DNA from: a virus
Taxonomy: Duplodnaviria > Heunggongvirae > Uroviricota > Caudoviricetes
Length of the DNA: 47,020 bases
Virus record (IMG/VR): IMGVR_UViG_646862327_000001
Reading direction: 5' to 3' (one strand)
The notes beneath the pieces were generated by a model, which saw nothing but the letters and a program-made list of their open reading frames with translations, did no database searches and was not told where the DNA came from. Position numbers and translations under genes: made by a program. Shown here one piece after another: positions 4,588-8,367 of the stretch (positions are counted from its first letter, which is position 1; the number at the start of each line of letters is the position of its first letter).

Positions 4588-4878
4588 TTAGTGATTCAGG
4601 CCGTTGCCGCGTCCGTCGAGAAAAACTTCCACGAGCAAATCACGGGTATAAGTGCGCTCGATGCCGCGATGCAGATAAAGCCGTCCGCGTAAATTAGCTG
4701 ATGCAGTCCAGGTACCATCTTTGTGTTTGACCAGCATTCCTGGCATGACCGCACCGCGATTAACGGTCTGCGTTCCGTAATGTTGATGAACCATAAAAAC
4801 TCCTGCCCGTAAGCTGGGCTGCTGAACATATAGAGACTTCTGCGCGTATTCAGGCGGTGGATGGCCGCCGGTTGTCAT
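4588..4878 (-). CDS. Hypothetical pL-proximal protein (96 aa from ATG at 4876-4878; TTG-extended frame reaches 4998)
   Basis: First ORF downstream of the putative pL, in the slot lambda uses for N; extended frame begins with an Arg-rich stretch (SRLRGVRGVKRTRERR). No boxA/boxB recognised. Confidence 0.35.
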
Positions 4879-5074
4879 AACTAAGCCGCCTCGTTGAAGC
4901 GACTGAGGTATGAGGTGTTGAGTTGATTTCAGCTGGTCACACCGACGTTCACGCGTCCGCTTCACCCCTCGCACTCCCCGGAGCCTGCTGAAATTCAAGC
5001 TGCGGATCTAAGCGGTCATCGCAACGGTGAATCAGGTGATTGCCGTATCGTTGTGTTGTTGCGACATGGTGATA

Positions 5075-5157
5075 ATAGCTATTGTTATTGGCTGTATCAA
5101 TACTTATTGCTATTGATTGATGTGTTTTGATATTAACTGTTTGATAGCAAAAAGAAT
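5075..5157. promoter_or_regulatory. Putative OL operator cluster / pL region
   Basis: Three 14-bp sites ATAGCTATTGTTAT (5075-5088), ATACTTATTGCTAT (5100-5113), GATAGCAAAAAGAAT (5143-5157, inverted) resemble the three OR sites beside cI. Confidence 0.45.
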
Positions 5158-5238
5158 TAATTTTGTGACTTGTATCGCATAGCGATAACTGAAGGGAGGA
5201 TGTGGTGGTTTTTCGAACGGTTTGTGTGATGAGGGGAC

Positions 5239-5265
5239 AAAAGAAAACCCGGCACGGTGGCCGGG
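5239..5265 (-). terminator. Rho-independent terminator ending the cI-cargo operon (tImm analogue)
   Basis: Minus-strand hairpin CCCGGC-caccgt-GCCGGG followed by UUUUCUUUU, 4 bp after the stop of the 125-aa ORF. Confidence 0.6.
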
Positions 5266-5269
5266 ATTC

Positions 5270-5647
5270 TTACGCAGGTAGGTAAAGATATGATTGTGGT
5301 GGCTTAATATTACTACCTAGAGCAGAGATAGGAATTGGTTCTTTATATCTTTCCACTTCACCAATTTTTATTGCGTAGGCCTTTTCTCTACCTGAATAAT
5401 ATGAGTCATAAAATTGCTTAGAAATACCTGCGTGTTTTTCCGTCTTTTTCCAAAGAGATTCCGGTTCGTCACTTAGTATTGATTCAATACGGAATTGACC
5501 AACAACTTTACCTAATGGCATCGTGGCATAAATAACAACGGTGCTAATTTGCGGATTTTTGAATATACCTTTACGAAACTCGAACCGCTTTGTTCCGTTC
5601 AATATTTTTTCTGCAAACTCAGGCTTAATGGATAATAAAACTTTCAT
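5270..5647 (-). CDS. ASCH-domain (PUA-like) protein, 125 aa
   Basis: N-terminus MKVLLSIKPEFAEKILNGTKRFEFRK...VVIY...GKVVGQFRIESI fits the ASCH family signature; overlaps the upstream gene by 23 bp; AT-rich codon usage. Confidence 0.6.
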   Translation of the reverse strand: MKVLLSIKPEFAEKILNGTKRFEFRKGIFKNPQISTVVIYATMPLGKVVGQFRIESILSDEPESLWKKTEKHAGISKQFYDSYYSGREKAYAIKIGEVERYKEPIPISALGSNIKPPQSYLYLPA

Positions 5648-6686
5648 TTATCTTGCCTAACTCGATGATCTTTAAGAACTGCTCATTTGTGAGTTTAAAG
5701 TGACTCCATCGGAATGCACGCGAACCATTTAGCCCCACATGATCTATTAAAATAGCACGATTGGGTCTCTTTGGCAAAGACAGATTGTATGTGAATCTTA
5801 TAATGAAAGGGTATCGACGTTCTTTATAGATTTTTCTGAGTTCATCTTCAGAAAATACGCTAAAACGAATACAATAGTCTACAAAACTATCTTCGCTTAA
5901 AAATTCAGAAATATTTTTTACGCTCTCAACTACACATAATGTACTGGCTACAGAACGATAGCGAGCTGGCCCTTTTTTGTCTCCGGTTCTATAGATGACA
6001 ATGATATCTCCTCTTTTCATTCCCATCACAGAACGCATTCCACATATGTAAATTTTATGAATGCTGTTAGCATGGGATATATCTTTGACAATATCTGGTG
6101 ATTCATTTACAAGTTTTGAATCAGGGAATAGTCTAGTGTGATATTCGGGATAAATCGCCAGTAAATATTTGTTGGCCCTTGATGTCATTATTCGAGGGTA
6201 ATCTAATAAAATATCACCATAAGGCTCATGCAAAGACCTCGCATATACAAACTCTTTCCCGTTATGTGTTTCTTTTTCACCATGAATGTAAAATCCGTAC
6301 GTTTGGAAAAGTTTTATTAGATGGACGTGTTTGTCGAAAACAGTAACATAAATATCATCAGATTTTGATGAAAATGCATGGTCAAACGCTTTTTTTAGAA
6401 ATCGTTGTCCGCGAAGGGTGCCTTTAGATTCAAATTTGAATGTTCCTATCTTTAGATGACGTCCTGGTGGGAGCGCTGGATTAATGTCATTTGCATCATC
6501 ATTTTCTTTTAGATACATAAAACCTTCGATTTTATGCTTGTCATCATAGAGCACATAAGCTGATTCTCCTTCTCTGGCTTTTTTTTCTAACCAAAGAGGA
6601 AACTCTTTATAATCTTTTTTTAAAGAGTCAAAAAATGGGTCATTGTGATCAAAATCAGAGAATTTCTCATATTTTAAAGTATCCAT
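5625..6686 (-). CDS. Two-domain protein: GNAT-like acetyltransferase fold (N) fused to PUA-like ASCH/EVE-type domain (C), 353 aa
   Basis: Start moved to ATG 6684-6686 (GGAGA RBS). N-terminal ~155 aa looks GNAT-like by eye (...LKIGTFKFESKGTLRGQRFLKKAF...LFQTYGFY). C-terminal part repeats the ASCH-like pattern (KYLLAIYPEYHTRLF...GMKRGDIIVIYRTGD). Same strand as cI, in the rexA/rexB slot. Confidence 0.55.
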   Translation of the reverse strand: MDTLKYEKFSDFDHNDPFFDSLKKDYKEFPLWLEKKAREGESAYVLYDDKHKIEGFMYLKENDDANDINPALPPGRHLKIGTFKFESKGTLRGQRFLKKAFDHAFSSKSDDIYVTVFDKHVHLIKLFQTYGFYIHGEKETHNGKEFVYARSLHEPYGDILLDYPRIMTSRANKYLLAIYPEYHTRLFPDSKLVNESPDIVKDISHANSIHKIYICGMRSVMGMKRGDIIVIYRTGDKKGPARYRSVASTLCVVESVKNISEFLSEDSFVDYCIRFSVFSEDELRKIYKERRYPFIIRFTYNLSLPKRPNRAILIDHVGLNGSRAFRWSHFKLTNEQFLKIIELGKINESFIIH

Positions 6687-6766
6687 TAAGTTCTCCATTC
6701 TAAAATGAATAATTAAGTTGTTTTACTGAATGAGCACAATGCCCGGTTGATAATTTTTAATTGGTA

Positions 6767-7459
6767 CTATCCATGCTTCCTATACGTCTGCGGCATGCTC
6801 CCAATAACTTTCCCGAAGATAAATACCCGGTTCATCTCATCTTTCTCGATCGGGTCCCACGGTGAGTAGCTTTTGTTATCAGAGATAACCAGCAGCTTAT
6901 CCTTCATCATTTGCAGGCGCTTTACATGGGCTGTGTCGTCGTACAGAAACGCATAGATACCATCACCGTCGAAAGATTTAACCGTGATATCAACGAATAG
7001 AAGATCACCAGGTTCAATCGTTCCTGACATGCTGTCACCGCGTACGTTAATGATGCGGATATTTTCTGCCTTCCTACCATCGAACATGTGACGAGCATCG
7101 TCAAACGAGTACTCAACCGAGCGTAGAACTTCTACAAACTCACGGTTGATGACTCCCGGCCCGGCACTCACTTCTATATCAAGAACGTCAATCTTGAAGT
7201 ATTTGGGATGGTTGGCAGTAGGCTTCCCTAATTGTTGACCGTCATTTCTCATCGGGCCTATGCCTGATGAGAGCCACTCTGTTCGAACACCCAATGCATT
7301 AGCTATTTCAACAATTTTTGTTGAGCCGCGCGCGTTGCCGCTTGTCAGTCTCCAGATTGTGGGTTGAGCTACGCCAGACGCCTTTGCAAGAGCGCCTTGA
7401 GACATTCCAGATTGTTCCATCGCTAGGTTTAAGCGATCAGCAAGAGTTTCTTTTTTCAT
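6767..7459 (-). CDS. cI: Prophage repressor cI (HTH + LexA-like S24 peptidase domain)
   Basis: N-terminal HTH (GMSQGALAKASGVAQPTIWRL) and C-terminal S24 autocleavage module (GDSM...VKRL); start set to ATG 7457-7459 (MKKETL...) rather than the TTG at 7495; divergent to cro. Confidence 0.85.
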   Translation of the reverse strand: MKKETLADRLNLAMEQSGMSQGALAKASGVAQPTIWRLTSGNARGSTKIVEIANALGVRTEWLSSGIGPMRNDGQQLGKPTANHPKYFKIDVLDIEVSAGPGVINREFVEVLRSVEYSFDDARHMFDGRKAENIRIINVRGDSMSGTIEPGDLLFVDITVKSFDGDGIYAFLYDDTAHVKRLQMMKDKLLVISDNKSYSPWDPIEKDEMNRVFIFGKVIGSMPQTYRKHG

Positions 7460-7471
7460 AAGTTTTAATTT

Positions 7472-7535
7472 ATACGCTTGCGTATTGATGGTCAAAACAC
7501 GTTTTGCTATTGTTATGATTAATACGCATTGCTAT
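7472..7535. promoter_or_regulatory. OR operator cluster with pRM/pR
   Basis: Three 14-bp sites at ~25-bp spacing between cI and cro: ATACGCTTGCGTAT (7472-7485, perfect dyad), ACACGTTTTGCTAT (7497-7510), ATACGCATTGCTAT (7522-7535). Confidence 0.6.
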
Positions 7536-7569
7536 TATTTATTCATTGTAATACCAATAGGAATTAATA

Positions 7570-7797
7570 ATGACAAATCAAACCATTCAACTCGCAATCA
7601 GTATTACAGGTAGTCAAAAACGACTGGCAGATCTATGCGGTGTAGCCCAGCCCACTGTTTGGCGTTGGCTACACGGTGGCGGAATTGATGCCCGCTATGT
7701 AATGAAAATTGTCTCAGCCACTGGTGGAAAGATTAAACCAGCAGATATTCGTCCCGACCTCGCACCATTGTTTAACGCGAGTAATTCTGCCGCCTAA
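7570..7797 (+). CDS. cro: Cro-like HTH repressor (YdaS-type)
   Basis: 75 aa with HTH (QKRLADLCGVAQPTVWRW); first gene rightward of OR. Confidence 0.8.
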   Translation: MTNQTIQLAISITGSQKRLADLCGVAQPTVWRWLHGGGIDARYVMKIVSATGGKIKPADIRPDLAPLFNASNSAA

Positions 7798-7821: not shown

Positions 7822-8367
7822 ATGACTATGCAACCACTTACATACCAACAGACTAGCGGATTTAGCCCGACTGCGGTGATAAATCGTTCTCAAACAAAAC
7901 AGGCGCCAGGCCACGAAAAAATCCGTGATGCCGTTCGCGCCTGGTCGGCTGCAGATAATCAGGATGTTGTTGCCGCACTCATTGTGAATGAGTATCGGGA
8001 GCAGGGCGGCGGCACCATCGATTTTCCTGATGATGTCAGCCGTGCACGCCAGAAGCTGTTCCGCTTCCTCGATAACAAATTCGATTCTGAAAAATACCGA
8101 AATAACGTGCGTGAACTGACCCCGGCAATTCTGGCGGTACTACCGCTGGAATATCGCGGCCACCTGGTTGAGCAGGATAGCTTCATGGCTCGGCTGGCTG
8201 AAATGGAAAAGGAACTCAGTGAGGCAAAACAGGCTGTCATTCTCAACGCACCACGCCACCAGAAACTGAAGGAGATGAGTGAAGGCATTGTGTCGATGTT
8301 TCGTGTGGACCCGGATCTGGCTGGTCCACTGATGGCGATGGTCACCACCATGCTGGGGGCAATATGA
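7822..8367 (+). CDS. cII-position regulator, YdaT-like family (181 aa)
   Basis: Occupies the cII slot between cro and O; motifs EYREQGGG and PAILAVLPLEYRGHL resemble the Rac YdaT / phage CII family as remembered. Confidence 0.55.
   Translation: MTMQPLTYQQTSGFSPTAVINRSQTKQAPGHEKIRDAVRAWSAADNQDVVAALIVNEYREQGGGTIDFPDDVSRARQKLFRFLDNKFDSEKYRNNVRELTPAILAVLPLEYRGHLVEQDSFMARLAEMEKELSEAKQAVILNAPRHQKLKEMSEGIVSMFRVDPDLAGPLMAMVTTMLGAI

Follow-up and report, generated by a model that had tools for sequence, protein, structure and literature searches.

In the 47,020-nucleotide (nt) Caudoviricetes sequence recorded in IMG/VR as IMGVR_UViG_646862327_000001, which is the window analysed throughout, two overlapping genes, gevT and gevA, lie on the same strand directly behind the gene for a cI-like repressor. 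We found it somewhat probable that their products form a toxin-antitoxin (TA)-like conflict or defence module that would be expressed in the lysogen. The strict pairing of the two genes, their mobility, their repressor-linked and hotspot contexts, the TA-like modules that sister phages hold in the same slot, decay affecting gevT only, and the prediction of Bell et al. 2020 all point in this direction. An acetylation-based exclusion system or toxin/modulator pair, as a previous sequence-only reading of the window had suggested, would agree with these genomic contexts, with published in-silico predictions (PMC7641849) and with GenBank annotation.

That reading had taken the pair not to be a described system, which was mistaken, since the pair has already been predicted, catalogued and named. 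Bell, Wolf and Koonin (BMC Biol, 2020) reported that an ASCH protein is encoded in almost every (PIN-)GNAT-EVE operon, and that the PIN-less GNAT-EVE form, for which they predicted a TA function, is common in beta- and gamma-proteobacterial prophages; theirs was computational work only, and none of these modules had been characterised at that date (PMC7641849). They raised both an aminoacyl-tRNA target and protection against restriction-modification (RM) systems, and cited the proposal of Iyer et al. 2013 that GNAT-EVE proteins acetylate DNA bases (PMC7641849). Nothing essential differs in the architecture found here, in which a GNAT domain with a C-terminal EVE-type domain is followed by a separate ASCH gene, apart from the lack of a PIN domain and of an AAA_17 neighbour in the present copy.

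The cassette is 99.2% identical over 1645 nt to Escherichia phage PhiR47_2 (PV340567.1), which belongs to the PhiR phage set of Brenes & Laub 2025 and in whose record the two genes bear the product names "GevT toxin" and "GevA antitoxin". GevT is 100% identical in protein sequence to the GevT annotated there, the position between cI and kil is likewise the same with no sequence-level difference between the two systems, and the module occurs at 100% identity in several deposited phages. GevT also matched phrog_6345 (E 1e-186), and in PADLOC both proteins of the adjacent gene pair matched hidden Markov models of PDC-M11 nearly end to end (GevT to PDC-M11A, E 2e-133; GevA to PDC-M11B, E 7e-52). 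A PDC name is a candidate label in PADLOC and not that of a validated system. Other PDC-M11A models, of 444–501 amino acids (aa), match GevT only via their C-terminal ~350 residues and so bear an N-terminal extension, probably the PIN domain, that is not present here. Full-text literature searches returned no other paper naming GevT, GevA or GevTA, and "GNAT-EVE" only in the Bell paper and its preprint; the searchable open literature gave no biochemistry or mechanism for GevTA or PDC-M11.

Predicted folds and conserved residues

Structure prediction with AlphaFold2 (AF2; predicted local distance difference test score, pLDDT, 86.7 for GevT) assigned a GNAT fold to the N-domain of GevT and an EVE-type beta-barrel (PUA-like) fold to its C-domain. 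The models, together with a Pfam ASCH match on GevA, bear out the GNAT/PUA-like fusion and ASCH partner that had been proposed from the letters alone. Within the GNAT domain, for which 78 species were aligned, at least 76 keep G93, R95, K98 and E145 and at least 77 keep Y130-G131-F132, and GevT is likely an acyl-CoA-dependent transferase, the chemistry of which is not certain.

Comparison figures for the C-domain of GevT were highest for ZmASCH (13.0), followed by the EVE proteins 2gbs, 1wmm and 2ar1 and THYN1 bound to 5-methylcytosine (5mC) DNA (10.7–11.4), the EVE-HNH enzyme VcaM4I (9.4), YTH domains (~9), McrB N-domains (7.4–8.6) and YqfB (7.4), and therefore place the domain in the EVE/ASCH-family-2/YTH cluster of PUA-like modified-base readers. 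It is without the ASCH octapeptide, the Lys position (K191) being Ile in 54 of 80 species, and this lack fits a reader role over an eraser role.

GevA scored 35 bits against Pfam ASCH (cut-off 21.2) and retrieved ZmASCH (5guq) in a profile search at E 1e-17. Its motif G18-T-K20-R-F-E23-F-R25 corresponds to the GxKxxExR octapeptide, with G18 present in 77 of 80 species, and K20, E23, R25, Y40, W66, Y83 and P117 are conserved in all 80. Y40 and S119, both invariant, are the counterparts of the nucleic-acid-binding Y47 and S128 of ZmASCH, such that the two proteins have fold, sequence, octapeptide and binding Tyr and Ser in common. ZmASCH binds single-stranded (ss) RNA and ssDNA and is a reported ssRNA ribonuclease (PMC5615036). 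ASCH proteins with a GKER motif strip N4-acetylcytidine (ac4C) from tRNA, with Lys and Glu as the essential catalytic dyad (bioRxiv 10.64898/2026.02.27.708502), while E. coli YqfB hydrolyses ac4C and acts in its catabolism (PMC6972931). The earlier analogy with YqfB-like ASCH amidohydrolases thus gained from the invariance of the K/E/R motif in GevA. The YqfB-type GK[T/S]R variant of the motif is absent, as GevA has Glu and not Thr/Ser, and GevA groups with the GKER/ZmASCH type, for which free ac4C is not a substrate. Studies of ZmASCH (5GUQ), YqfB, TthASCH, EOLA1 and TRIP4 have dealt with each as an enzyme on its own and not as part of a pair with a GNAT-EVE protein.

We also considered whether the C-domain of GevT and GevA are close paralogues, and rejected this: hhalign gave a probability of 29% over the first strand and helix only, so that the fold is common to both with no detectable family-level kinship. 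As a separate observation, GevA residues 3–123 match an "unknown domain" at the C-terminus of a protein annotated as a ribosomal protein L22 fusion (NCBIfam NF008917, E 2.8e-15). Some bacteria thus have a GevA-like ASCH domain fused to a ribosomal protein, a hint that the substrate may be RNA or the ribosome.

Pairing, distribution and decay of the cassette

Homologue clusters numbered 1631 for GevT and 2443 for GevA, with identity kept at 45–77% across phyla, which argues that gevT and gevA are genuine genes and not chance open reading frames (ORFs). Both genes occurred together in 159 of 160 related loci, drawn from two surveys. The genome survey, with one genome per species, yielded 215 relatives, of which 80 loci were kept, at 45–74% identity, from Gamma-, Beta-, Alpha-, Delta- and Epsilon-proteobacteria, Bacteroidota, Firmicutes, Acidobacteria and Verrucomicrobia. 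An ASCH homologue was present in all 80 and lay directly downstream with a 13–23-nt overlap in 77, similar to the 23-nt overlap that had been noted in the window and whose coordinates we confirmed. The IMG/VR survey yielded 222 relatives; among the 80 viral loci kept, 79 had an adjacent ASCH gene, usually overlapping gevT, and the remaining locus is cut by the contig end. The exact cassette was found in 275 of 5426 complete E. coli genomes (5%), in every case as a single chromosomal prophage copy at least 99% identical.

Upstream of gevT, a same-strand helix-turn-helix (HTH)/S24/CI-type repressor gene was the neighbour in ~57 of 80 viral loci by our own reading of N-terminal sequences, and 11 of the 27 neighbour clusters matched Pfam HTH_3. 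Most viral loci with no adjoining repressor have one unknown gene before gevT. Genes of 260 aa or 355–379 aa stood directly upstream of gevT in ~18 of 80 viral loci (for example 5216–5995 of viral contig L163 and 4835–5971 of viral contig L151). Klebsiella 186-like prophages are similar in this respect, with the order CI, a 355-aa gene (L082, 6909–7976), GevT, ASCH, int. The 355-aa gene had no precomputed Pfam domain, no PADLOC match and no similarity to GevT, and is neither a GevT paralogue nor a member of a PADLOC family. These upstream genes may belong to the module as a third part or may be cargo in their own right.

The pair has other placements as well. Salmonella phage SopEPhi carries it in the slot that runs from replication gene A to the portal gene (the P2 A–Q slot). 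In Klebsiella P2/186-like prophages (L082–L089, positions 1–1900) the contents of the A–portal slot differ by strain (ThsB-TIR, PIN_12, GmrSD_N with HEPN, or a KAP NTPase), in keeping with its standing as the P2 defence hotspot. Some of the Klebsiella strains also have SocA_Panacea-domain genes immediately beyond int. A distant relative sits inside the "inserted fragment IFa" of Methanothermobacter phage psiM100, and plasmids of rhizobia, Pseudomonas, Rahnella and others also bear the pair. The immediate upstream neighbours in non-phage genome loci vary (AAA_17 five times, as well as Fic, Mom, a resolvase, a relaxase and a restriction endonuclease), and among 74 genome loci we found no conserved upstream partner beyond the occasional AAA_17 (5 of 74). 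No housekeeping context, which the sequence-only reading had named as a finding that would speak against it, appeared among the neighbours of the genome loci.

Two E. coli genomes have a broken gevT beside an intact gevA, through IS1 in one and a frameshift in the other, and a third has many frameshifts across the whole cassette region (the three being E138, UID2404240032 and SCU-485; L095, L177 and L176). In these genomes the cassette stands behind a repressor with a different N-terminal DNA-binding part and an identical C-terminus, a pattern that points to recombination inside cI.

A Vibrio/Photobacterium variant (L013, 8001–10080; L017; L022) has its ASCH gene on the opposite strand, convergent with gevT and not overlapping it, and in L013 and L022 a 506–522-aa gene abuts the gevT start. 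We rejected integron cassettes as an explanation of these variants, as no attC-like repeats were found in them.

Locus layout and the cargo slot

The cassette appears to be horizontally acquired cargo. The AT-richness that had been remarked on earlier was confirmed, with a GC content of 0.34–0.37 over positions 5350–6850 compared to 0.50–0.55 in both flanks. The layout, the operator repeats and the pL-like promoter likewise agree with the proposed placement in the slot that holds rexAB in lambda, between cI and OL/pL. Table 1 gives the features of the locus.

Sister phages from the same collection (PhiR70_1, PhiR30_1, PhiR68_2 and PhiR5_1) have ~190 nt in common with this phage, from OL through the terminator stem, and part from it exactly beyond that stem. 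Because the divergence begins there in phages with other cargo, the terminator is a feature of the phage backbone, ending the cI operon and forming the border of the slot, rather than part of the cassette. The terminator that had been described before the OL-like operators is thus present, while its description as the end of the cassette had to be amended to a backbone feature common to the sister phages. Cargo is swapped between the cI stop codon and the terminator hairpin.

The survey of cargo between cI and pL that had been called for showed that all four sister phages carry other cargo there (L090, 4684–6206; L091, 4679–6033; L092, 4668–6123; L093, 4690–6263). PhiR30_1 carries the PADLOC candidate PDC-M63 (DUF6932 and a 310-aa protein), PhiR5_1 a HipA-like (HipA_2) kinase with DUF3037 (PDC-M66, annotated HipA/HipD), PhiR70_1 a three-gene set including an MqsA-like antitoxin, and PhiR68_2 an overlapping pair of 341 and 149 aa for which Pfam and PADLOC gave no match. 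By these contents the slot is a hotspot for TA-like and defence-candidate cargo at the lambda rexAB position. With lambda RexAB the cassette has the genomic slot in common and presumably the expression logic as well (a cI operon active in the lysogen, with a terminator before OL). Homology to RexAB or to any validated defence system was rejected, as the sole PADLOC match was PDC-M11, the folds are GNAT, EVE and ASCH, and only the position is common with RexAB.

Table 1 Features of the gevTA locus and its edges, in window coordinates
Feature	Position	Strand	Basis and remarks
PRM-like promoter (TTGACC-17-TAAATT)	7467..7495 (7495->7467)	minus	Consensus scan match; ends ~8 nt before cI ATG; putative function
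cI-like repressor (HTH + S24 peptidase)	6767..7459	minus	Pfam Peptidase_S24 E 1.5e-18, HTH_3; upstream gene of cargo unit
cI-gevT intergenic spacer, 80 nt	6687..6766	minus	GGAG Shine-Dalgarno at 6693-6696
gevT, 353-aa GNAT-EVE fusion	5625..6686 (stop codon 5625-5627)	minus	PADLOC, PHROG, GenBank identity, AF2 model
GNAT (acyl-CoA N-acyltransferase) domain, gevT residues 1-155	6222..6686	minus	
EVE-type PUA-like domain and C-terminal helical tail, gevT residues 160-353	5628..6209	minus	
gevA, stand-alone ASCH protein, 125 aa	5270..5647	minus	Pfam ASCH, PADLOC PDC-M11B, ZmASCH profile match
gevT/gevA overlap, 23 nt	5625..5647	minus	ORF coordinates
Intrinsic terminator, CCCGGC-loop-GCCGGG then TTTTCTTTTG	5239..5265 (5265->5239)	minus	Stem 5248-5265, T-run to 5239
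Conserved non-coding block, terminator to OL, ~100 nt	5140-5238		Near-invariant in five phages
OL-like operators	~5086-5115		Repeats match OR repeats at 7483-7537
pL-like promoter	5100->5072	minus	Consensus scan; reads into kil, gam, bet, exo

The ORF finder placed gevT at 5625–6698 (357 aa), whereas homologues begin at the second ATG, at 6686, six nt downstream of the GGAG, which agrees with the end coordinate given by the sequence-only reading. The repressor gene probably starts at the ATG at 7459 (TTG 7495 in the ORF list), and its PhiR47_2 counterpart, annotated cI, is 690 nt long and begins MKKETL. A consensus and terminator scan found neither a minus-strand terminator nor a convincing strong promoter in the spacer between cI and gevT, and because of this we infer that cI, gevT and gevA are most likely one transcript in the lysogen. 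The search for internal promoters gave 8 promoter-like matches compared to 8.7 expected by chance, and internal promoters were rejected. The translation of gevA is probably coupled to that of gevT.

Several further features surround the cassette. The non-coding block between the terminator and OL is kept even where operators and cargo differ, PhiR5_1 having a different immunity, and contains a perfect 15-nt palindrome (TATCGCATAGCGATA) at 5173–5187; the block might bind a regulator or encode a small RNA. The positions of cro and cII hold YdaS-family (7570–7797) and YdaT-family (7822–8367) proteins. There is no N-like antiterminator gene between the pL-like promoter and kil (4998–5100), and an Rfam scan of the whole window gave zero matches.

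Candidate mechanisms and significance

If GevTA acts as a conflict module in the lysogen, the GNAT domain of GevT would acylate a nucleic-acid base at an exocyclic amine, probably by acetylation with acetyl-CoA as the donor, with cytosine N4 in RNA or ssDNA as the favoured target, and the EVE domain would be the reader that docks GevT on its (modified) nucleic-acid substrate. The presumed toxicity of GevT would be countered by GevA, which would take the modification off again, occupy the same substrate as GevT, or do both, and so let the cell survive. Phage infection would upset the balance between GevT and GevA, such that acetylation blocks translation or replication and the infection is aborted. 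Since ASCH proteins deacetylate ac4C (bioRxiv 10.64898/2026.02.27.708502; PMC6972931) and the motif of GevA is intact, a writer, reader and eraser arrangement would be the simplest reading. We hold the eraser step itself, in which GevA would reverse the modification made by GevT, only tentatively. Rather unlikely as a complete scheme is a nucleic-acid acetylation immune module in which the EVE domain would read a (possibly phage-specific, modified) base, the GNAT domain would acetylate an exocyclic amine of RNA or DNA, at cytosine N4 or elsewhere, and the ASCH deacetylase would protect self. DarTG follows a comparable logic, with a toxin that writes a covalent nucleic-acid mark, an eraser antitoxin encoded downstream, and phage defence by abortive infection. 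The likeness is one of analogy and not of membership, as ADP-ribosylation and a macrodomain in DarTG are unrelated to GNAT and ASCH.

Several observations weigh against an acetylating conflict module. GevT matched zero Pfam families at E <= 0.1, with the GNAT (Acetyltransf_*) and EVE models not significant, and no significant NCBIfam family, and structure prediction was therefore needed to assign its domains. The best sequence match of the GNAT domain was PaiA, a polyamine (spermidine/spermine) acetyltransferase (PDB-profile E 1.4e-5), alongside a PHROG acetyltransferase match and a weak NCBIfam PaiA match. Where PaiA has its general-acid Tyr, GevT has F127, a position occupied by Phe or Leu in 71 of 80 species, although Y130, three residues further on, is invariant; GevT may use a non-standard acetyl-transfer chemistry. 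For ZmASCH, the nearest relative of GevA with a solved structure, neither hydrolysis of free ac4C nor a drop of ac4C in vivo was observed, and it was reported as weak or inactive on ac4C (bioRxiv 10.64898/2026.02.27.708502). In Lactobacillus prophage Lj965 the pair lies before terS, so that it is not always in a lysogeny operon, and the asymmetric decay of gevT, seen in two or three decayed copies, is anecdotal.

Among other explanations, we judged it improbable that GevTA is a classical type II TA system, in which GevT would acetylate the amino group of charged tRNA, the EVE domain would recognise a tRNA modification, and GevA would neutralise GevT by protein binding and not by catalysis. GNAT toxins that acetylate aminoacyl-tRNA are established, the target was suggested by Bell et al. 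2020, and the overlapping genes would give a fixed stoichiometry. GevA and the C-domain of GevT have a common fold and similar first strands (LLSIKPEF vs LLAIYPEY), which makes a heterodimer or mimicry conceivable, and the match of GevA to the L22-fused ASCH domain hints at the translation apparatus. However, the conserved residues of GevA sit in the ASCH catalytic and nucleic-acid cleft and not on a separate surface, and GevA has neither a DNA-binding nor a disordered toxin-binding extension. The specific analogy to tRNA-acetylating toxins of the AtaT/TacT type, drawn by the sequence-only reading, received no backing from architecture or sequence. AtaT, TacT, KacT and ItaT resemble GevT in the GNAT fold and the two-gene operon, but are single-domain proteins of ~170 aa with a catalytic Tyr and a DNA-binding ribbon-helix-helix (RHH)/DUF1778 antitoxin encoded upstream, whereas in GevTA the GNAT domain is fused to an EVE domain, the ASCH partner is downstream, and the Tyr position is Phe or Leu. 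Searches of Pfam, PADLOC and NCBIfam found no match to these toxins or to DUF1778/RHH antitoxins.

Mom of phage Mu has a GNAT fold and modifies the adenines of DNA, and GevTA could be imagined as a comparable counter-defence or self-modification system, in which GevT would modify phage or host DNA bases against restriction and GevA would limit collateral modification. The acetylation of DNA bases proposed by Iyer et al. and the RM protection raised by Bell et al. 2020 fit this account, as does the resemblance of the EVE domain to the modified-DNA-cytosine readers THYN1, VcaM4I and McrB-N. We nevertheless regard it as quite improbable, given that the lambdoid and 186-like copies stand in a repressor operon, expressed in lysogens and not in lytic growth, that the cassette is also found on chromosomes and plasmids away from phages, and that sister phages hold TA-like modules in the same slot. 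A metabolic or housekeeping pair with no conflict role, in which a small-molecule (e.g. polyamine) acetyltransferase would be joined by an acetyl-cytidine salvage amidohydrolase, as the PaiA match and the role of YqfB-type enzymes in ac4C catabolism (PMC6972931) might suggest, is very hard to sustain given the fusion to a nucleic-acid reader domain, the strict pairing, the patchy cross-phylum distribution on mobile elements with no conserved metabolic neighbours, the prophage hotspot locations, and a GevA of the type inactive on free ac4C.

As the GevTA pair itself is known, its interest now centres on its biochemistry and on the well-defined cargo slot. In this lambdoid group the clean slot from the cI stop codon to the conserved terminator is good mining ground for further systems expressed in lysogens. 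The module is very widespread, from enterobacterial and Lactobacillus phages to a Methanothermobacter virus and to the plasmids and chromosomes of many phyla, and recent work on ac4C deacetylation by ASCH proteins makes the writer and eraser hypothesis concrete and testable. If the writer, reader and eraser arrangement is true, GevTA would parallel DarTG with an acetyl mark and give ASCH eraser activity its first biological role in a conflict system, and base acetylation would join the covalent nucleic-acid marks of bacterial immunity.

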